The position numbers were made by a program, and so were the translations under genes. Below, piece after piece: positions 3,241 to 33,347 of a DNA stretch of 64,000 nucleotides. The notes under the pieces were generated by a model. It worked only from the letters and a program-made list of their open reading frames with translations. It did no database searches and had not been told where the DNA came from. Where the stretch lies: sequence record PZ445551.1; one strand, given 5' to 3'. Every line of letters starts with the position of its first letter. Position 1 is the stretch's first letter. The stretch comes from a phage.

Positions 3241-3456
3241 ATGATCACGAATAAGACAGGTAAAACAGAATTTTTACGCGGCTTGCAAATAGGTAAACCT
3301 GAGATCTGGCATTGCACTAAATCCGCGCATAATGAAATGAAAGATTTTACCGCTACTTTACAACGTGTTAAAATATCTATCACGCAGAAAAAAGCCTTGT
3401 TAGTAGTAGAAAACGAGATACCGCAAACCATTATTATTGTCGAGCGTACAGCATGA
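3241..3456 (+). CDS. hypothetical protein (71 aa)
   Basis: track ORF 3223..3456 trimmed to ATG 3241 with RBS aaggtg. Confidence 0.5.
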   Translation: MITNKTGKTEFLRGLQIGKPEIWHCTKSAHNEMKDFTATLQRVKISITQKKALLVVENEIPQTIIIVERTA

Positions 3457-3839
3457 AAACTGAAATCATTATTGAAATCATCAACGGTTATAAAGAAGCC
3501 TTTATTTTTGCTGAATCAGCCAGGGATCATGAAGGCTATTTTATTGATAACTTAGACGATTATGATTTTTCAGATCAAGCCCATCAGCGGATCATTCATG
3601 ACGTAGCGGCTTATTGTGATGCCAATGATGCTGCTATCTCTGAGGCAATGAGCGACGGCGCTACAGCAAACCAGATCGGGAATGATTTACATTTTACCCG
3701 TAACGGTCACGGCGTAGGCTTTTGGGATCGCCCTGAAATATACACTACTAACACCGCCAACCGCCTAACAAATGCAGCTAAATTAATGCCATCGGTGCAT
3801 GCTTACATTGGTGAAGATAATTTGATTTATATTGAATAA
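3453..3839 (+). CDS. hypothetical protein (128 aa)
   Basis: track ORF; ATGA start/stop overlap with upstream gene. Confidence 0.55.
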   Translation: MKTEIIIEIINGYKEAFIFAESARDHEGYFIDNLDDYDFSDQAHQRIIHDVAAYCDANDAAISEAMSDGATANQIGNDLHFTRNGHGVGFWDRPEIYTTNTANRLTNAAKLMPSVHAYIGEDNLIYIE

Positions 3840-3845
3840 AAAGTA

Positions 3846-3904
3846 TTGACACCGATCCCCCATATGGTATTATTTACCACGTAGGCGGGAAATGGTTTCC
3901 CGCC
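3846..3904 (+). promoter_or_regulatory. promoter + conserved 5'-UTR stem-loop cassette, copy 5
   Basis: TTGACA 3846-3851, -10 TATTAT 3868-3873, hairpin GGCGGGAAA-TGG-TTTCCCGCC 3884-3904. Confidence 0.6.
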
Positions 3905-3927
3905 AGGTAATCAAAAAGGTAAATACT

Positions 3928-4317
3928 ATGCGCAACCTGGTTTCTGTTTCTAACGTTGAAAAATTTCAATCCTTGCAGGGTATCGTTAACAACGTAGCGC
4001 CTTTTTTAGTCAATGGCTTGATTGCAAAGATGAAAAATAAACATCATGCGGCATGGTCTGCTTACTGCTTTGATAATGATGAAAAAGCGGCTGAAATGAT
4101 GTTAGATATGCTGTTAAATAGTGTAGAAACATCTTTACCGGAAAACATCGCAGAAGAGATCACCTATCGTTATAATATGGCGATCACTTACCAGGAGGTT
4201 GCGCAATTTAATATGATGGATGATGACGAACAACAGGATCAGGAAATGTTTTGGGAGTATGCAGATCGTCAATCGGCTTTTGATGAAAAGTTAGCGATGT
4301 ATTATAACGAATATTAA
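3928..4317 (+). CDS. hypothetical acidic protein (129 aa)
   Basis: track ORF 3892..4317 starts inside the hairpin loop; trimmed to ATG 3928. Confidence 0.5.
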   Translation: MRNLVSVSNVEKFQSLQGIVNNVAPFLVNGLIAKMKNKHHAAWSAYCFDNDEKAAEMMLDMLLNSVETSLPENIAEEITYRYNMAITYQEVAQFNMMDDDEQQDQEMFWEYADRQSAFDEKLAMYYNEY

Positions 4318-4333
4318 TACACGGTAAAAGAAA

Positions 4334-4357
4334 GGGGCGCACTAAGCGCCCTTTTTT
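4334..4357 (+). terminator. rho-independent terminator
   Basis: ggggcgc-actaa-gcgccc hairpin followed by TTTTTT. Confidence 0.65.
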
Positions 4358-4703
4358 GTATTCTTTTTTCACGATGGAAGTAACACGTAAAGAATAAACG
4401 TAAAAGGTGGTGTAAAACAGCCTAAAACCGATTATAACCGCTTAAACAAGGTAGTAATGACTAATCACCTTGCCAGGATGAAAAAGCTGTTATAAAGCTA
4501 TTTAGAGCGTTTAAAGCACATAGGAAATAATTTGCTTTTTATCTTGCCTTTTATCCTGCTTTTGATTATTATTATGGAACGGGCGGCACCTGGGGACAGG
4601 GGAAGGTAATCACCGGAAGATCCCGCTATATATTGATAGCTAATATCTATTAAACAACAAAACATCAAAGGAATAAACTATCAAATCTTTACAATTCTAC
4701 CTA

Positions 4704-4763
4704 TTGACACAGGATCACCCTTATAATAAGATGTATCCAGTAGGGCGGGAAATGGTTTCCCGC
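4704..4763 (+). promoter_or_regulatory. promoter + conserved 5'-UTR stem-loop cassette, copy 6
   Basis: TTGACA 4704-4709, 17 nt, TAAGAT 4727-4732; hairpin GCGGGAAATGGTTTCCCGC 4745-4763. Confidence 0.6.
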
Positions 4764-4782
4764 TTGATATAGGAATCATACC

Positions 4783-5016
4783 ATGATCGAACAAATTAAA
4801 AGCACTACACCAAATGTTAACGGCAATGTTTCACACTTTATCGGGGATAATGAAAGGGGTACACCATACGCCGCCGTAACCGTGCAACCTAATGGCGATT
4901 ATTGGTTTACCGTGTACGGATCATATTCTTTCGGACGCCCGGCACATGATAAGATCTTGCAAGCGGTTAAGCCTACTGGGAAGAATATCACAGCAGAAAA
5001 ATTTTATAAAAAATAG
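4783..5016 (+). CDS. hypothetical protein (77 aa)
   Basis: track ORF; RBS taggaatc. Confidence 0.55.
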   Translation: MIEQIKSTTPNVNGNVSHFIGDNERGTPYAAVTVQPNGDYWFTVYGSYSFGRPAHDKILQAVKPTGKNITAEKFYKK

Positions 5017-26688: not shown

Positions 26689-27261
26689 TTAATGTGTTAA
26701 TGAAACTGCGTAACTAAACACAGGTTCAGATATTACATCGGCTACAGTAATAAAAACGTCTTCGTCTTGAGTTGTTTCTACACGACATACAGTTACACCA
26801 TTCACCACGAATTCAACGCAATGTGGAATATCTTCACAAACGAAGGTAGTGTAAGTAACACCCAAAGCATCATACAAAGATTTAACAGTGTTTGCAAGTG
26901 CCGCAGTTTCTTCTTTTTCTGAGACAATGAATGCTGTAACAACAAGATTGTTTGCATAGTTTAGACTGTCCTCTATAGCCAATGATTTACAAGGTAGTAA
27001 TGCAAAATATTTACCTGGTTTAATCAGACCTGCTTCCCATTGATTCAAAATTGCTTGGGATGGTTTAGTAATATAAAACAGATTTTCACTTGGGTTATCA
27101 ATATTACTTCTGGCGATACAACGTGAAGGATTATTAATATCAAACACATGATCAAAATCTACACAAACTGGTAAACTGAAAGGTGTGAATTTTTTACCTA
27201 ATAATCCTACTGCTGACAATATGTTTGCTGTGCTTATCTTCCCGTTAAAAGCTAAACGCAT
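26689..27261 (-). CDS. hypothetical protein (190 aa)
   Basis: track ORF. Confidence 0.5.
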   Translation of the reverse strand: MRLAFNGKISTANILSAVGLLGKKFTPFSLPVCVDFDHVFDINNPSRCIARSNIDNPSENLFYITKPSQAILNQWEAGLIKPGKYFALLPCKSLAIEDSLNYANNLVVTAFIVSEKEETAALANTVKSLYDALGVTYTTFVCEDIPHCVEFVVNGVTVCRVETTQDEDVFITVADVISEPVFSYAVSLTH

Positions 27262-27485: not shown

Positions 27486-28148
27486 TTATTTAATATTCAA
27501 TTTTGCACAAAGACGTTGTACCGCTTTGGCATCGAACAAACTCCCACGAATAGTTCTCTTTCCTGATTCATTCAGATGTTTTGCAATCGTCATATATGGC
27601 GTTTTACAAGCTCTGTATGCAACTAAAGAATCTTTTAAAGAAAGCGCAAACTCTTTTGAGCGTTTTGCTTCTTCCGTTTTCGTATAATCTGTTCTTTTGT
27701 ATTTAGGGTTTGCTGCACCAAGAAGCGTTCCCTTCGCTTTTGCTACTTTAAGGCTCTTCTTAACACGATCAGATATTGCACGAGCCTCTTCTTCTGCCAG
27801 AACTGCTAAAATATTTATTATCATATTTTCAGCGGAGGGCATAGTTGCTATTCGTACATTAATCATCTCTAACAAGGTTGCAACAGAAGCTGTGTTACGT
27901 CCAAGACGGTCAACCTTAGCAACAACAAGTGTAGCACCTGTTTCTTTGCAAAGATTAACAGCTTTTACAAGCTCTCTACGTTGCTTCCAATCGCCTTTAC
28001 CCGAATAAAACTCTGCAAAGCTACCTACAATAGTATAATTTTCTTGTGAATCCAGGAAGCGTTGGATATCTGCTTCCTGTGATTCTATACCATACTGGTT
28101 GCCTTGTTGTTTCTTCTTAGAAAGTCGATGATACAGTACAAACTTCAT
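27486..28148 (-). CDS. serine recombinase (resolvase/invertase family)
   Basis: RLSKKKQ catalytic-Ser region, VVAKVDRLGRNTASVATLLE, AVLAEEEARAISDRVKKSLKVAKAKG, C-terminal HTH. Confidence 0.8.
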   Translation of the reverse strand: MKFVLYHRLSKKKQQGNQYGIESQEADIQRFLDSQENYTIVGSFAEFYSGKGDWKQRRELVKAVNLCKETGATLVVAKVDRLGRNTASVATLLEMINVRIATMPSAENMIINILAVLAEEEARAISDRVKKSLKVAKAKGTLLGAANPKYKRTDYTKTEEAKRSKEFALSLKDSLVAYRACKTPYMTIAKHLNESGKRTIRGSLFDAKAVQRLCAKLNIK

Positions 28149-28205
28149 AATACCCTCCTGTTCTGTTACAGGAAGTATGCACTACCTTAACGTTAAAGTC
28201 AACAG

Positions 28206-28421
28206 TTAAGTAGTGGTAATATCATCTTCTTGAATATCAGGATCAACTTCTGCAAAGATAGCTTCTACAGGAATTTCTTCACCTGCTATTCTAGAAAGAA
28301 GCACTGAACCAATAGCTTTTGCGTGTTCTTCGGATTCCGCATAAACATTAGTCCCTGTGTCTTTTTTCTTAGTTTCGTTAAAATATACCAGATAGTAATT
28401 GTATGCCATTATTCTTCCCAA
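28206..28421 (-). CDS. hypothetical protein (71 aa)
   Basis: track ORF. Confidence 0.45.
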   Translation of the reverse strand: MGRIMAYNYYLVYFNETKKKDTGTNVYAESEEHAKAIGSVLLSRIAGEEIPVEAIFAEVDPDIQEDDITTT

Positions 28422-28660
28422 TCGTTGTTACGAGCATTTTCAAGAACCTTGACAACTTCTGCATACTCTACAGCTAAACCAGCACACACTTCAGCTTGTT
28501 TTGCAATTGCTTGTTTAAAGAACATAGCGATTGCAACACTCTGTGTTGTGTGAATGTTATCTGCTTTAGTTGATACGTGAAGATCAAAATCTTCTTCATC
28601 AAAGGTGAGTTCCATAGTAACAATAAATTTCTCGGTCATAAAAATGCTCCTCTTAAACAA
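28409..28660 (-). CDS. hypothetical protein (83 aa)
   Basis: track ORF. Confidence 0.45.
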   Translation of the reverse strand: MFKRSIFMTEKFIVTMELTFDEEDFDLHVSTKADNIHTTQSVAIAMFFKQAIAKQAEVCAGLAVEYAEVVKVLENARNNDWEE

Positions 28661-29162
28661 AATAGAAAGGTTGAGTTAAACCCAGCCTGTTTTTTGGGTC
28701 GTAGACGTACCAAGCATATGCTGTCTTATCAGTACCACCTGCAACAAAAGATGGTCGTTCAGAAAGAACAATCAAATTTGTTGGTGGATTCTGTTTATGG
28801 AATTCCCTTCGTTTAATAGACTCTAGGAAACCAAGACGCAACAAGTATATGCAAACGTCTGCTTCTTTTAAGCTCTTTTGCAAGAACTCAAGTGCAAGTT
28901 TGAATGGGGGATTTGTGATTATAATATCCGGCTTAGTATGCCATTCGTGGTTAAAATAATCTTTCCCTTCTTCTAACTCACAATATTCTGATCCTTCTGG
29001 AAAATGTTGATAAATTGCAGCAGCAGCGCCTTTACACGGTTCTGCAAAAATAAAACCTTCTTCTTTAAGGTTATTAAAATCTATTACACTAAATAATGCA
29101 TTTATACATTTTTGTGGAGTAGGATAGTAATCAGTTGGTGGACGATCATACTTATTTGCCAC
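28653..29162 (-). CDS. putative N6-adenine methyltransferase (phage Dam-like, NPPF motif)
   Basis: DYYPTP and IIITNPPF motifs; 169 aa. Confidence 0.55.
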   Translation of the reverse strand: MANKYDRPPTDYYPTPQKCINALFSVIDFNNLKEEGFIFAEPCKGAAAAIYQHFPEGSEYCELEEGKDYFNHEWHTKPDIIITNPPFKLALEFLQKSLKEADVCIYLLRLGFLESIKRREFHKQNPPTNLIVLSERPSFVAGGTDKTAYAWYVYDPKNRLGLTQPFYFV

Positions 29163-29580
29163 TACTTAAAATCTCCTCTTTTGTGATTTCAGGGTCTTCT
29201 TCAAAAACCATAATATCTCTTAAGAACGTTAATTCTTCCATAGATACTGGTATTGTATCTTCTTCTGTTTTTCGTTTACATAAATCGTCAAGAAAGTTTT
29301 TAAAGTTTTCTGACAAATCGTAAAATTTCAACAGTTGATAATCACAGGAGGAGATCCTATCTAGTTCTAACATTCTTTCTAAGATATTTTCTGTGTTGCC
29401 ATACAGCACACGAACTTCTCCGAAAGGGTTGACTGAGTATTGTGAAGTTCTGAACCATCCCTTTTTAGATACAGTGTAACGCTGTTCTGCTAAACTTTCA
29501 ATAAAATTTTTAGCTCTTTTACAGTTTTGTTCTAAAGAGTAGTAGGCTTTTTCTACAAAGGTTACAGGTACTGGTAACAT
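29152..29580 (-). CDS. hypothetical protein (142 aa)
   Basis: track ORF. Confidence 0.5.
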   Translation of the reverse strand: MLPVPVTFVEKAYYSLEQNCKRAKNFIESLAEQRYTVSKKGWFRTSQYSVNPFGEVRVLYGNTENILERMLELDRISSCDYQLLKFYDLSENFKNFLDDLCKRKTEEDTIPVSMEELTFLRDIMVFEEDPEITKEEILSSGK

Positions 29581-29620
29581 ATCTCCTCCTAATAACCCCC
29601 TTGCGGGGGTTTATACTAGA

Positions 29621-30274
29621 TTAATTATCAGAGGACACTTTATCAAGTTTTTCAGAGACTGTCAATACTTTTTCTTGTGATTCTTTCATTTCTGCTAAAA
29701 TACTTTCAGCTTCATCACTATCAGGATCACCAGTCAACAGCATACTAATTAGTTGCTCCTTGCTGAAGTTCAGAATATCTTCCGCTGTTAGCTCCAGTTG
29801 TTCTTCGATCTCTTCAATAAAAGTTTCACCGCCGGAAAAAGCATCTCGTAGTTTTGCAACTTCCATCGCTTCTTCTGGAGTTGCCCCTGCATCTAAAGCT
29901 GCTAAAGCAAAATCTGCCCCACTACCAACAGCATAATAATCTTCAGTTAAAGGATATGCTCGCGTGGGATTATTACCCTCGTGCATATAAATTTTACCGT
30001 CTGGGTGAACAACCAATGCCACAAATTCTTCATCTTCTTTATCAGGATCTGACTGGATCACCAAACCTGGGATTGTCTCTTGTGCTGCTTGGCATTGTAA
30101 GTTTTGTTCGAACCAAGAAAAGAAAGTCAGGATAGAAGACAGACGTCCTGCACCACCAACAAGGTAGTCCCCAATTTTACGCACTTTCTTGAAATTTAAA
30201 GTGTCTACACGACTACCTACTGTTACTTTACCGTCAGACAGAATTTTGTTACGTGTTGCAATAATTGTTGTCAT
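29621..30274 (-). CDS. HslV-like Ntn-hydrolase (proteasome beta-type) protease subunit
   Basis: MTTIIATRN (Thr2), KVRKIGD, GGAG, AVGSGADFALAAL resemble HslV; acidic C-terminal extension. Confidence 0.6.
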   Translation of the reverse strand: MTTIIATRNKILSDGKVTVGSRVDTLNFKKVRKIGDYLVGGAGRLSSILTFFSWFEQNLQCQAAQETIPGLVIQSDPDKEDEEFVALVVHPDGKIYMHEGNNPTRAYPLTEDYYAVGSGADFALAALDAGATPEEAMEVAKLRDAFSGGETFIEEIEEQLELTAEDILNFSKEQLISMLLTGDPDSDEAESILAEMKESQEKVLTVSEKLDKVSSDN

Positions 30275-30765
30275 TGTACTTCCTCCTGTAGTGTTTTAAG
30301 GACTGCTTTACCACCGCTTACATATTTACGGAGGTAATCAATAGCTCTTAGTGTTTCTTTATCCACAAGAATTTTATTAGTTCTTGTTAGTGGATGATTT
30401 AGTAAATCACTGCAATTTCTTACTAACATAGATTTCTTGTGAAAGATACTGCTAAGAAAAAGAAGTTTAGAATCTTCTTCATCAATCAGGAGTAATTCTG
30501 AATTAGACCCAGCTATATTTATTATACACTCAAACAAGCCTTCTTGACTATCAGATAATTCCTGGTAATATTTAGTTAGCCAATCCTCGCCTTTTAACCA
30601 ACTAAAAAACATCTGAACTTTTTGCAAAGTTGTCATGTTCTCTAAACGAAGAGATATTTCTTTTTCAATCTTGTCAATATAAATCTGTCTAAACTCATTC
30701 GGCTTAACTAAGCCAGCTTGATAGCATTCATCAATACCATTGCGATCAATCTCAATTAGCGTCAT
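30271..30765 (-). CDS. hypothetical protein (164 aa)
   Basis: track ORF. Confidence 0.5.
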   Translation of the reverse strand: MTLIEIDRNGIDECYQAGLVKPNEFRQIYIDKIEKEISLRLENMTTLQKVQMFFSWLKGEDWLTKYYQELSDSQEGLFECIINIAGSNSELLLIDEEDSKLLFLSSIFHKKSMLVRNCSDLLNHPLTRTNKILVDKETLRAIDYLRKYVSGGKAVLKTLQEEVQ

Positions 30766-30801
30766 TTAACCTCCATAACAGGCATCCTTGCCTTGTAATT
30801 A

Positions 30802-31554
30802 TTAATATACTTCCGTGATGAACTGAGACAAACGGGAACGTTGGTTATCAGCAGTTGTCATTTCAACATAACCAATAAAATCCACAATAGCTTCCCTTTC
30901 TCCTTCTTCATTAATAGGAACAACACGATCTAACAAATCACCTAACCCGTTAGCTCTTCGTTTAATTGCATATGTTTGATTAACATCACCCATAATGACA
31001 ATACGTGTATTAAGACCTGCTCGCTCAAGGAGAAGTTTTACTGTATTTGGTGACATAAGTTGAACTTCATCAATAAGAATAATGCTGTTATCCCACGTAG
31101 CACCTAGTGCATAGTTTGGAATATTAAGTTCAATTTTGCCACTTGCAATATCGTTTTCCAATTTATTTGCAGTCATAAACTGTTGGAAAATTCTTTTAGT
31201 TGATTCGTAGTGTGCTGCTAGTTTATCAGTCTTATCTCCAGATAAGAAACCAATTTGATCATCACCTACTTCTGTCGGGTTTTTAAGGAAAATCAACTTT
31301 CTGAAATCACCAGCTTTAAGCATTTGCAATGCTTTCCACAGTGCTGTTGTCGTTTTTCCTGTTCCTGCTGGGGCATTAACAATGGTTAAATCATTCCAAA
31401 CCATGCTTCTTACAATAGCTTCTTGATTCCCAACAGGGGTAAATTCATCAAGACGGTAATCATCATTTCCTACTGCTTTAGCCGCATAACGACTGGCACG
31501 TTTGTCATCATTGGCTGCTGATTGACGACGAGCCTTTGCGGTTTTATTTCCCAT
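30802..31554 (-). CDS. phoH: PhoH-like ATPase
   Basis: Walker A NAPAGTGKTT and PhoH-like downstream region. Confidence 0.8.
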   Translation of the reverse strand: MGNKTAKARRQSAANDDKRASRYAAKAVGNDDYRLDEFTPVGNQEAIVRSMVWNDLTIVNAPAGTGKTTTALWKALQMLKAGDFRKLIFLKNPTEVGDDQIGFLSGDKTDKLAAHYESTKRIFQQFMTANKLENDIASGKIELNIPNYALGATWDNSIILIDEVQLMSPNTVKLLLERAGLNTRIVIMGDVNQTYAIKRRANGLGDLLDRVVPINEEGEREAIVDFIGYVEMTTADNQRSRLSQFITEVY

Positions 31555-31571
31555 GTTTGCACTCCTTATAA

Positions 31572-31590
31572 AAGGGGCTTTCGCCCCTTT
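31572..31590 (-). terminator. rho-independent terminator after lysozyme gene
   Basis: GGGGC-gaaa-GCCCC then TTTT on minus strand. Confidence 0.6.
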
Positions 31591-31592
31591 GT

Positions 31593-32093
31593 TTAGTTAT
31601 AAGCGTCTAATGTTCCAGTTTTAAGTACCTGAATTACACGCTCTGCGCGATTAGGCGTTTGGCGATACCATTTACTTTTACGTAAATTTATAGAGGCTTG
31701 AGTATAATATGAATTACTCACTAAAGTCAAGCTATTTTTGAAAGATTCTGCACCTTTCAATCCCATTTGAAATACCATATTGATAATAGCCATTTTACGA
31801 TTAGGACTTACTTTATCGTAAATAGGAGATAATATGGTACTTGAATGGATTTGTTGTATCGCTTTCTTTACGTCACTTTCAAAGATTCTTCTAGCTTCCG
31901 CTTCAGTAATAACTCCATTGGTTTTTCTACCTACTAAGTTATCAAGAATGCGTATAGCTTCTGCTTTATCTTTGAGTTTTGTCAGAAGGTGTCCAATACC
32001 AACTGTCCAATACCCTTCGGTATCAGGATATACAGTTAGCTTTAGTCCTTCATCAAAACGTAACATATCAAACACATCAACTACTTTAGCCAT
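31593..32093 (-). CDS. T4-type lysozyme (endolysin, GH24)
   Basis: MLRFDEGLKLTVYPDTEGYWTVGIGHLLTK matches the T4 e catalytic E/D/T region. Confidence 0.9.
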   Translation of the reverse strand: MAKVVDVFDMLRFDEGLKLTVYPDTEGYWTVGIGHLLTKLKDKAEAIRILDNLVGRKTNGVITEAEARRIFESDVKKAIQQIHSSTILSPIYDKVSPNRKMAIINMVFQMGLKGAESFKNSLTLVSNSYYTQASINLRKSKWYRQTPNRAERVIQVLKTGTLDAYN

Positions 32094-32105
32094 GTTTTCC
32101 TTATA

Positions 32106-32249
32106 TTAGTCGCCCTCCCCATGATCTAGCTCTTGAAACAGTAGGTGTTCAGGAGACATTTCACGTTTAGGCTTCGTCTTTTTAGTTTGGGACTTAAGCT
32201 CTGTTGCCAAAGCACGAGAAAAGATTTTACGTTTCTGTTTACCTTTCAT
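32106..32249 (-). CDS. small basic protein (47 aa), not in track
   Basis: ATG 32249 after RBS ggag; Lys-rich. Confidence 0.3.
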   Translation of the reverse strand: MKGKQKRKIFSRALATELKSQTKKTKPKREMSPEHLLFQELDHGEGD

Positions 32250-32253
32250 ATTG

Positions 32254-32520
32254 TTACTCCGCAATCTGAGCCATGAATTCACGTAGTTCAGAAAAACCTC
32301 CTACGTGGGTTAGCTGTTCACCATCTTCCACAAAAATCTGAGGAAATGTGCGTGGTAGAACACCTGTTTTCTCTAAAACCAGATTCTGAATCTGATCTAA
32401 AGAATAGTCTTCATCTAAGGTAAGGTATTTAAAATCCTGTTCACGCTGTTCTAGTAGAATCTTAGCGTTAGTGCAGAAAGGACAATTTGGTTTACCGTAG
32501 ATAATAAAATTCATTTTCAC
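32254..32520 (-). CDS. glutaredoxin/thioredoxin-like (NrdC/NrdH-type)
   Basis: CPFC active-site motif near N-terminus; 88 aa. Confidence 0.75.
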   Translation of the reverse strand: MKMNFIIYGKPNCPFCTNAKILLEQREQDFKYLTLDEDYSLDQIQNLVLEKTGVLPRTFPQIFVEDGEQLTHVGGFSELREFMAQIAE

Positions 32521-33347
32521 TCCTTGTTTAAAAGTATAGTTAAAGTTCTTACAATACCGCTATCAACACTTCGCGGATTTAAAGTAGGATCTGTTTTTAA
32601 ATAAGATGTTGCTGGTCTGACTGCTTTTGAATTATAGGTTGAAGCAGATACAGGATTAACTGTAACAGATAAATCTATAACAAGAAATATCTTTCGTGCA
32701 AAATCATACCAAGAAATATAATCTGCACCTGCATAGTGTACAATTTTACTATTTACACCATCTTTTACAAGTTTAAAAATTGTTTCTGCAAGATCAGGTG
32801 CATAAGTAGGACATGATAAATGATCACATACTACATTAAATTCTTTTTGACCACCGTTGTAGCGTTCCAACATAGTTTTCAAAAAGTTATGTCCAAATTC
32901 ACTATAAACAGAAGCTGTTCGGATAATAAGTGCTGTAGGACAAACTGTTTGTACTAAAGTTTCACCTAATTGTTTACTATAACCGTAGGTGTTCAAGGGG
33001 TTTGTTTTACTATCTTCTGTACCAGCAACATGCCCATCAAAAACATAGTCTGTTGAAATATGTACAAACTGTATCAGTAAATCATTACATGCTTTGGCAA
33101 TGTTTGTTGCACCGTATGCATTAACATTTATACAGGTGTTAACATCTTCTTCAGCTTTATCTACTGCCGTGTAAGCCGCACAATTCACAACAACATCAGG
33201 CACATGCTGTACAAGACTATTCATAACATCTTTAAAGTTGGTAATGTCTACATCACTTGCTTCAATCAAAATAACATCTTCGGGCGCAACTTTTGCCAAA
33301 GACTGTCCTAATTGACCTTTTGAACCAAAGACTAAAAATTTTGTCAA
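32517..33347 (-). CDS. rmlD: dTDP-4-dehydrorhamnose reductase
   Basis: N-terminal GxxGQLG Rossmann motif; position after rmlC. Confidence 0.75.
   Translation of the reverse strand: MTKFLVFGSKGQLGQSLAKVAPEDVILIEASDVDITNFKDVMNSLVQHVPDVVVNCAAYTAVDKAEEDVNTCINVNAYGATNIAKACNDLLIQFVHISTDYVFDGHVAGTEDSKTNPLNTYGYSKQLGETLVQTVCPTALIIRTASVYSEFGHNFLKTMLERYNGGQKEFNVVCDHLSCPTYAPDLAETIFKLVKDGVNSKIVHYAGADYISWYDFARKIFLVIDLSVTVNPVSASTYNSKAVRPATSYLKTDPTLNPRSVDSGIVRTLTILLNKE

Follow-up and report, generated by a model that had tools for sequence, protein, structure and literature searches.

A phi92-like coliphage gene annotated as HslV encodes a probable PPH-type threonine peptidase with an acidic C-terminal extension and a PhoH neighbour

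Introduction

A 64,000-nucleotide stretch of phage DNA from sequence record PZ445551.1 (called the window below, at its full length) contains, at 29621..30274, a gene whose product was described in an initial annotation, made from the sequence alone, as an HslV-like proteasome-type protease subunit. The locus raises the question of what such a subunit does in a phage: whether it is an HslV that borrows HslU or ClpX from the host, a scaffold, or a proteasome homologue of another kind with another partner. Our analysis indicates that the product is probably an accessory, phage-specific threonine peptidase of the Ntn type in the proteasome-beta/HslV superfamily (MEROPS T1 type), PPH-like and carrying an acidic C-terminal extension. 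The gene itself is of a known kind, annotated in dozens of phi92-like coliphages and falling within a published class of phage proteasome homologues.

Results

The gene and its relatives

In the open reading frame (ORF) listing of the window, a 217-codon ORF and its stop codon fill this interval exactly, on the minus strand. The strand first assigned to it was wrong; the plus-strand translation of the same interval, a frame full of stops, was rejected. The ATG is preceded, at a distance of 7 nt, by a strong AGGAGG Shine-Dalgarno sequence, and it overlaps, as ATGA, the TGA stop of an upstream gene for a 164-residue protein. The product starts MTTIIATRN, with T2 as its predicted nucleophile, and contains KKVRKIGD (residues 29-36), GGAG (40-43) and AVGSGADFALAAL (115-127), the motifs that the initial annotation had pointed out.

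By megablast, positions 28000-33000 of the window are 100% identical to Escherichia phage VivaForever (PP925843.1) and show 99% identity with about 55 other phi92-like myophages of the genus Justusliebigvirus, subfamily Stephanstirmvirinae. The gene corresponds to phi92 gp058 and VivaForever CDS0095, and existing GenBank and RefSeq labels for it include "peptidase HslV family", "putative proteasome component", "putative 20S proteasome" and "ATP-dependent protease subunit HslV". A tblastn search found the peptidase in 167 phage records (Escherichia 107, Aeromonas 15, Vibrio 12, Klebsiella 10, Shewanella 4, and others), and metagenomic matches lie on phage contigs of 140-155 kb. In the phage studied here some 36 kb separate the gene from the portal and capsid module, and it stands inside an early/metabolic cluster, with dTDP-sugar, ribonucleotide reductase (RNR), methyltransferase and glutaredoxin genes around it.

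A complete proteasome-type active site

The PHROG 1040 profile ("peptidase HslV family") matches at E=1.3e-61 and covers residues 1-212, while the Pfam Proteasome model PF00227 is matched at 25.1 bits, just above its gathering score of 22.4. The nearest relatives of solved structure in the Protein Data Bank (PDB) are HslV chains (Thermotoga 1m4y, E=5e-8). The AlphaFold2 model, with a predicted local distance difference test (pLDDT) of 85 and a predicted template-modelling (TM) score of 0.70, has the strand and helix order of a proteasome beta subunit and the alpha-beta-beta-alpha sandwich of an Ntn hydrolase. Searched with Foldseek, the PDB yields HslV/ClpQ, archaeal 20S beta and BPH at E ~1e-9 to ~1e-8 and probability 1.00, with target-normalised TM scores of about 0.65 for HslV and 0.51-0.54 for BPH.

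An alignment of 32 homologues (43-100% identity) contains sixteen invariant positions: T2, T3, D14, G15, K30, G41, A42, G43, R44, G117, S118, G119, D144, S147, G148 and G149. Among these, T2, D14, K30, G43, S118, D144 and S147 are equivalent to proteasome-beta Thr1, Asp17, Lys33, Gly47, Ser129, Asp166 and Ser169, and MAFFT aligns the active-site residues to HslV T1, D17, K33 and S124. The same active-site residues are kept by phage relatives whose identity is as low as 32-36%, and by short forms of about 140 residues. An MTT start is found in 197 of the 226 family proteins, the exceptions including visible fragments and one chimera. At residues 143-149 the protein has RDxxSGG, the 20S-beta form, at a place where E. 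coli HslV has GDICIYTN. Because the Thr is conserved and the predicted fold is that of an Ntn hydrolase, neither of the findings that the initial annotation had named as fatal to it, a variable N-terminal Thr or a different fold, was made. Since every catalytic residue is invariant, the pure scaffold role that it had also allowed is disfavoured.

HslV proper is another matter. The NCBIfam equivalog models for HslV give 34 bits against a cutoff of 137 (NF003964) and 31.6 against 157.75 (TIGR03692), far under their thresholds, and the protein must therefore be viewed as a member of the superfamily rather than as an HslV orthologue. The NCBIfam archaeal 20S beta model scores 26 bits against a cutoff of 224. 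The first description as an HslV-like subunit thus holds for the superfamily, by profile and by fold, and fails for HslV itself.

Loss of the features that HslV uses with HslU

In a MAFFT alignment with E. coli K-12 HslV, three segments are missing from the phage peptidase: 4 residues of the first hairpin, 9 residues after the GSG helix, and HslV residues ~80-91 (KDWRTDRMLRKL), which correspond to the end of helix H2 with its basic pore cluster. The AlphaFold2 model shows a single long helix at residues 45-67, followed by coil at 68-83, with H2 absent. All three losses are common to the phage relatives and the forms of about 140 residues. The deleted H2 segment carries HslV R83, R86, R89 and K90; in place of H2 and this basic pore cluster the phage protein has an acidic loop, DPDKEDEEF, in which D81 and F84 are invariant and E82 is at least 90% conserved among the 32 homologues. 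HslV K28 binds the C-terminal carboxylate of HslU (a literature search did not confirm this), and in the phage proteins the position is variable, occupied by T, S, Q or L. In HslV, R86, R89 and K90 line the pore, are required for activity and respond to HslU (PMC5777263). The HslU-independent BPH likewise has an acidic pore loop, has lost its HslU-interface residues and does not pull down HslU (PMC5777263).

In the 146-kb phage genome no HslU or ClpX is annotated, and a tblastn search with E. coli HslU gave no match at E<=1. The protein thus has neither the H2 basic pore cluster and interface residues of an HslV orthologue nor a cognate hslU gene, in its operon or elsewhere in the genome. The initial statement that no AAA+ partner is adjacent can be extended, for HslU and ClpX, to the whole genome, although it overlooked a PhoH-type P-loop ATPase 0.5 kb upstream and two distant PF00004 ATPases. 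Because the H2 pore cluster and K28 are lost and a phage HslU is absent, we infer that the peptidase is independent of HslU.

Overall, the phage protein shares with HslV its fold, a Met-Thr-Thr start without propeptide, the D17 and K33 equivalents and GSG, and its best pairwise matches to HslV reach 24-28% identity. It differs in deletions of 4, ~12 and 9 residues, in the unconserved K28 position, in its 20S-type RDxxSGG and C-terminal extension, and in having no cognate HslU gene. Gammaproteobacteria generally encode HslUV, and the hosts concerned (Escherichia, Klebsiella, Vibrio, Aeromonas, Shewanella) are all gammaproteobacteria. This circumstance, the HslV chains among the best sequence matches, and an MTTI N-terminus in the same style as that of E. 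coli HslV would suit a subunit that forms HslV-like dodecamers on host HslU, or ClpX, and so redirects host ATP-dependent proteolysis. We consider such pairing unlikely, and the initial suggestion of it is disfavoured, given the equivalog score, the variable K28 position, and the replacement of the R83/R86/R89/K90 segment by an acidic loop, a change comparable to one that in BPH accompanies loss of the HslU interface. As for ClpX, it docks on ClpP via IGF loops, which have no counterpart in the phage peptidase.

Relationship to PPH and other proteasome homologues

A profile search covering 1.84 billion representatives found 57 clusters at E<=1e-30, with lengths of 155-350 residues, mostly 180-350. 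Beyond these lies a continuum of proteins of 137-160 residues that match profile positions 1-155, with 1,273 clusters at E<=1e-10. The proteins of about 140 residues carry the core motifs GSG..[FY]A.GAM.AGA...A...A...D.[YF][ST]GG. In BFVD the closest structural neighbours outside the subfamily are Caulobacter phage proteins of 131-146 residues, at TM scores of 0.81-0.88. Among the groups described by Fuchs, Alva and Lupas (2021, PMC8665760), PPH comprises proteins of about 140 residues, without H2, in Caudovirales; RPC is related to PPH and has a C-terminal extension, but is listed for Proteobacteria only and not for phages; AAH and CPH are further groups. The profile continuum, the common core motifs and the BFVD neighbours fit PPH, and for this reason the window protein, as judged from alignments and models, appears to be a core of the PPH type that carries a conserved C-terminal extension. 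Its core of about 155 residues (nearest relatives outside the subfamily 137-160) is a compact group-I core that lacks H2, and its occurrence in 167 phage records and on metagenomic phage contigs agrees with a tailed-phage origin.

The likeness to PPH therefore comprises the compact core without H2, the Thr1/Asp17/Lys33 equivalents, the absence of a propeptide and the encoding by tailed phages. The difference lies in length, 217 residues against about 140, owing to a conserved acidic linker, a helix motif and a variable tail, and in a tight linkage to PhoH, documented below, that short forms mostly do not have. BPH resembles the phage protein as a stand-alone, HslV-derived homologue with a complete active site, no propeptide and no known partner ATPase, and as a protein with an acidic loop at the pore position instead of the basic cluster of HslV (PMC5777263); it differs in that it retains H2 together with a long inserted pore loop, is bacterial, has no C-terminal extension and gives lower TM scores. 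With archaeal and actinobacterial 20S beta subunits the phage protein shares the fold, the equivalents of Thr1, Asp17, Lys33, Gly47, Ser129, Asp166 and Ser169, and RDxxSGG, but it is far shorter and has no propeptide, alpha partner, H2 or S12/H5.

No second proteasome-like gene was found in the phage of the window. Aeromonas phage 2L372D has two in tandem (locus L005 of our collection, 3432-3983 and 4001-4885): a 183-residue protein of a different clade, starting (M)TCIIA, stands directly upstream of a 294-residue member of the subfamily, and the two could form a heteromeric pair.

The C-terminal extension

The initial annotation had noted an acidic C-terminal extension of 60 residues; it comprises the last 62, with a net charge of -12. 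An acidic linker comes first, then a helix motif, and last a variable tail; AlphaFold2 predicts helices at residues 164-169, 172-181 and 188-214, with pLDDT falling from ~80 to ~50 towards the C-terminus. The helix motif, FSKEQLISMLLTG, is kept down to 32% identity, in Vibrio qdvp001, Aeromonas 2L372D, Shewanella 1/40, Klebsiella FBKp34 and metagenomic members, and is missing from the short forms of about 140 residues.

Longer homologues (240-379 residues) have extra C-terminal segments in which no Pfam domain was detected, and the phi92-type protein is without them. In some of these longer members (P0061, P0069 and P0073-P0078; loci L004, L006 and L007) the extra segment includes a CxxC...CxxC stretch. 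By eye only, the terminal helix pair in the Vibrio, Shewanella, Aeromonas and Klebsiella phage forms looks HeH/SAP-like.

Linkage to PhoH

In the window, 0.5 kb separates the peptidase gene from an upstream gene for a PhoH-like P-loop ATPase, and the one gene for the 164-residue protein lies between them. The order of PhoH and peptidase is the same in phAPEC8 and FBKp34. Two ORFs intervene in Vibrio qdvp001, six, including the second proteasome-like gene, in Aeromonas 2L372D, and in Shewanella phage 1/40 PhoH directly adjoins the peptidase. In a metagenomic phage (L009, 4084-5946) the PhoH gene, which also directly adjoins the peptidase, is split by an intein with Hint and LAGLIDADG domains.

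We surveyed 69 loci with hidden Markov models for PhoH and for the peptidase family, counting peptidase ORFs that scored at least 120 bits and had enough flanking sequence. PhoH was present in all 29 such loci, at distances of 46-2,666 bp. In about 30 loci with short forms there was no PhoH inside the flank (up to 10 kb), with the single exception of L065, in which a 159-residue short form overlaps the end of PhoH. The two genes are arranged in three ways, with 0 to 6 genes between them: PhoH precedes the peptidase in the same orientation, follows it in the same orientation (L036), or follows it on the opposite strand (L012). The peptidase cores of the Vibrio and Shewanella phages are 55% identical, whereas the adjoining PhoH proteins are only 28% identical, and the Shewanella PhoH is 51-54% identical to those of FBKp34 and L012; adjacency therefore persists over discordant PhoH clades. 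All peptidase-linked PhoH proteins (loci L004-L036 and L065) have N-terminal tails rich in Lys and Arg. We found no earlier description in the literature of the PhoH linkage of the extended subfamily, or of the deletion in phage VEcB reported in the next section.

One explanation of the linkage is that the ring peptidase and PhoH make up a new two-component machine, in which the acidic peptidase tail or helix would dock on the basic N-terminal tail of PhoH and which would degrade RNA-bound proteins or remodel host ribonucleoprotein complexes. Several observations agree with it: adjacency in all informative extended loci, through three arrangements and across discordant PhoH clades; the co-occurrence of C-terminal extension and PhoH linkage, with short forms mostly lacking both; the charge of the PhoH tails set against the net -12 of the peptidase tail; and a single deletion in VEcB that hits both genes. 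We nevertheless regard a PhoH-coupled machine as doubtful. PhoH is much more widespread than the peptidase and common in phages that have none (244 records match a query made from the chimera, against 167 for the peptidase alone), no fusion was seen besides the VEcB deletion chimera, and the number of intervening genes varies. Proteins of the PhoH family are described as RNA helicases and ATPases, not as unfoldases (PMC7824862); PhoH itself is an SF1-helicase-like, RNA-dependent ATPase and no known unfoldase. The linkage could, finally, be partly a matter of inherited synteny, or of co-regulation: the order RNR, glutaredoxin, lysin, PhoH, peptidase recurs, and because related myophages have this syntenic block in common, the 29 loci are not phylogenetically independent.

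A natural deletion of the module

In phage VEcB, protein P0043 joins PhoH residues 1-113, in frame, to peptidase residues 64-217. RefSeq has it as one 804-bp gene (L074, 2501-3304), between a lysozyme gene and the gene for a 142-residue protein, and labels it simply "peptidase HslV family". Comparison of the DNA shows that a deletion of 1,130 bp took place between two 9-bp direct repeats, AGCAGCACA, one in PhoH and the other at codons ~62-65 of the peptidase. It removed the C-terminal half of PhoH, the entire gene for the 164-residue protein, and residues 1-63 of the peptidase, including Thr1, D14 and K30. VEcB, which has been propagated as an isolate and serves as a RefSeq exemplar, is a natural triple knockout. 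The 9-mer itself occurs five times in the window (13088, 30081, 31211, 36914 and 49146), four of the copies on the minus strand; shuffling gives an expectation of 0.48, and a count of five was not attained in any of 100 shuffles.

Because VEcB propagates despite the deletion, the PhoH/peptidase module can be dispensed with in laboratory culture. This speaks against a morphogenetic protease that the phage needs, and points to a part in host takeover or conditional fitness instead of virion maturation. Phages commonly encode self-compartmentalising maturation proteases, and in metagenomic locus L036 the PhoH and peptidase genes stand beside a portal-like gene. A prohead protease, or another essential protease of morphogenesis, is nonetheless highly improbable for the gene studied here. 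It lies far from the portal and capsid module, in an early/metabolic cluster, and the propagation of VEcB without the catalytic N-terminus largely refutes such a role.

Neighbouring genes and other features

The features discussed are collected in Table 1. Neither immediate neighbour qualifies as a conserved partner of the peptidase. The upstream 164-residue protein is modelled by AlphaFold2 as all-alpha at pLDDT 93, has no fold match in the PDB and has homologues confined to Stephanstirmvirinae-like contigs; it was rejected as an orphan fold restricted to that group. The downstream 142-residue protein was rejected since it is kept only in phAPEC8-like phages and close relatives. PADLOC found no match to defence or anti-defence systems among the peptidase and neighbour proteins.

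The two PF00004 ATPases, paralogous and of the classic AAA type, lie outside the window, 38-53 kb away. Their PDB matches are weak (Cdc48/p97 D2, E ~1e-4), and their labels vary among "ATPase", "FtsH-like protease" and "ATPase or Zn metalloprotease". We rejected them as specific partners of the peptidase because their family is widespread in phages of Enterococcus, Bacillus, Staphylococcus and Lactococcus, genera absent from the 167 peptidase records.

Besides the hairpin just 3' of the peptidase stop, further GC-rich tetraloop stem-loops occur before PhoH (31571-31590) and after it (30780-30793). One example reads GGGGC-GAAA-GCCCC, followed by TTTT, and each is placed just 5' of the ribosome-binding site of the next gene. 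These intergenic stem-loops may be attenuators or mRNA-stability elements. A scan for promoter and terminator consensus sequences gave sites no more numerous than in shuffled sequence. A 190-codon ORF at 26689-27261 on the minus strand is labelled "histidyl tRNA synthetase" in VivaForever, although it is far too short for HisRS; it has a counterpart of the same size and name at 112365-112937 of that record.

Table 1. Positions of the peptidase gene, its parts and the other features considered (window coordinates unless stated otherwise).
Feature	Position	Strand	Basis
PPH-type "peptidase HslV family" gene, 217 residues	29621..30274	minus	ORF, PHROG 1040, PF00227, identical GenBank phage records
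Catalytic core, residues 1-155; Thr1 = T2, codon 30269-30271	29810..30274	minus	alignment, AlphaFold2, Foldseek
Acidic loop DPDKEDEEF, residues 76-84, in place of H2 and basic pore cluster	30023..30049	minus	AlphaFold2, MAFFT
Acidic C-terminal extension, residues 156-217	29624..29809	minus	net charge -12, AlphaFold2
Helix motif FSKEQLISMLLTG, residues 170-182, consensus [ST]K[ED][EQ]L[IL]..[LM][LF].G	29729..29767	minus	alignments
PhoH-like P-loop ATPase, 250 residues, basic N-terminal tail	30802..31554	minus	Pfam PF02562, E=1e-35
Repeat AGCAGCACA in PhoH, left breakpoint of VEcB deletion	31211..31219	minus	
Repeat AGCAGCACA in peptidase gene, codons ~62-65, right breakpoint of VEcB deletion	30081..30089	minus	
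Upstream gene, 164 residues, phrog_14834, translationally coupled via ATGA overlap	30271..30765	minus	
Downstream gene, 142 residues, phrog_15078	29152..29580	minus	ORF, PHROG
GC-rich tetraloop hairpin CCCCC-GCAA-GGGGG just 3' of peptidase stop	29597..29609	minus	
phrog_2376 ATPases	L003 15623-16750 and 30730-31890 (VivaForever record 101622-102749 and 116729-117889)		

Discussion

The peptidase gene is presumably expressed along with the rest of its minus-strand cluster, which contains genes for nucleotide metabolism, DNA modification and PhoH. By analogy with E. coli HslV, which also starts (f)Met-Thr-Thr, host methionine aminopeptidase would remove Met1 and expose Thr1. Judging from residue conservation, Thr1, D14 and K30 would form the catalytic triad, with G43 as the oxyanion hole and S118, D144 and S147 in support. 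The subunits, if BPH and HslV are a guide, probably assemble into rings whose pore would be lined by the acidic DPDKEDEEF loop, and would work without HslU. The C-terminal tail with its SKEELIxxLFG helix may extend outward from the ring and serve in docking or regulation, and the peptidase may act with the phage PhoH ATPase, or in the same pathway, as the genomic linkage would suggest.

Some points weigh against this reading, the possible inheritance of the linkage and the helicase-like nature of PhoH among them. BPH shows no activity in standard peptidase assays (Fuchs et al. 2018, JBC, PMC5777263); a complete set of catalytic residues is therefore no guarantee of general protease activity, and other proteasome homologues can be ligases, for example connectase (PMC8665760). 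The assignment to PPH rather than RPC is tentative and follows the group descriptions of Fuchs, Alva and Lupas (2021), whose reference sequences include WP_042125023.1 and WP_140207863. We found in the literature no biochemical or genetic study of any member of the family, only mentions at the level of annotation. A jumbo-phage paper has an HslV gene without HslU (PMC7823757), other phage papers mention a "proteasome" gene merely as an auxiliary gene, and our literature search found no follow-up studies of PPH since 2021.

The example of connectase and the inertness of BPH on standard substrates (PMC8665760, PMC5777263), together with a location amid dTDP-sugar, RNR, methyltransferase and glutaredoxin genes, raise the alternative of an Ntn enzyme that is not proteolytic: a connectase-like ligase or transpeptidase, or an amidohydrolase acting on a small molecule, a modified nucleotide or a sugar. 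It is very unlikely that the protein is of this sort. Conservation extends to every residue of the proteasome-type set, RDxxSGG included; the model has no connectase-like helical insertion between S3 and S4, and over distant phages no conserved partner from a small-molecule pathway appears apart from PhoH.

An accessory threonine peptidase thus remains our preferred reading. A more conjectural extension, which we consider improbable in either of its forms, is that the extended PPH-type peptidase and PhoH are an unrecognised phage two-component machine, a proteasome-like ring with an SF1-helicase-like ATPase coupled to it, docked via the conserved acidic C-terminal helix and tail, or that the tail works in cis and activates the peptidase by imitating the C-terminal tail of HslU (EDLSRFIL in HslU, EQLISMLL here). 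If either were true, the peptidase would be the first functional partner for phage PhoH, a widespread "auxiliary metabolic gene".

The gene is otherwise an ordinary annotated accessory gene, and its value is mainly that of an entry point: to the substrates, partners and phenotypes of phage proteasome homologues, and to the role of PhoH, a marker gene of marine viruses. The strict PhoH linkage and the natural VEcB mutant make both questions approachable in an easy E. coli system.

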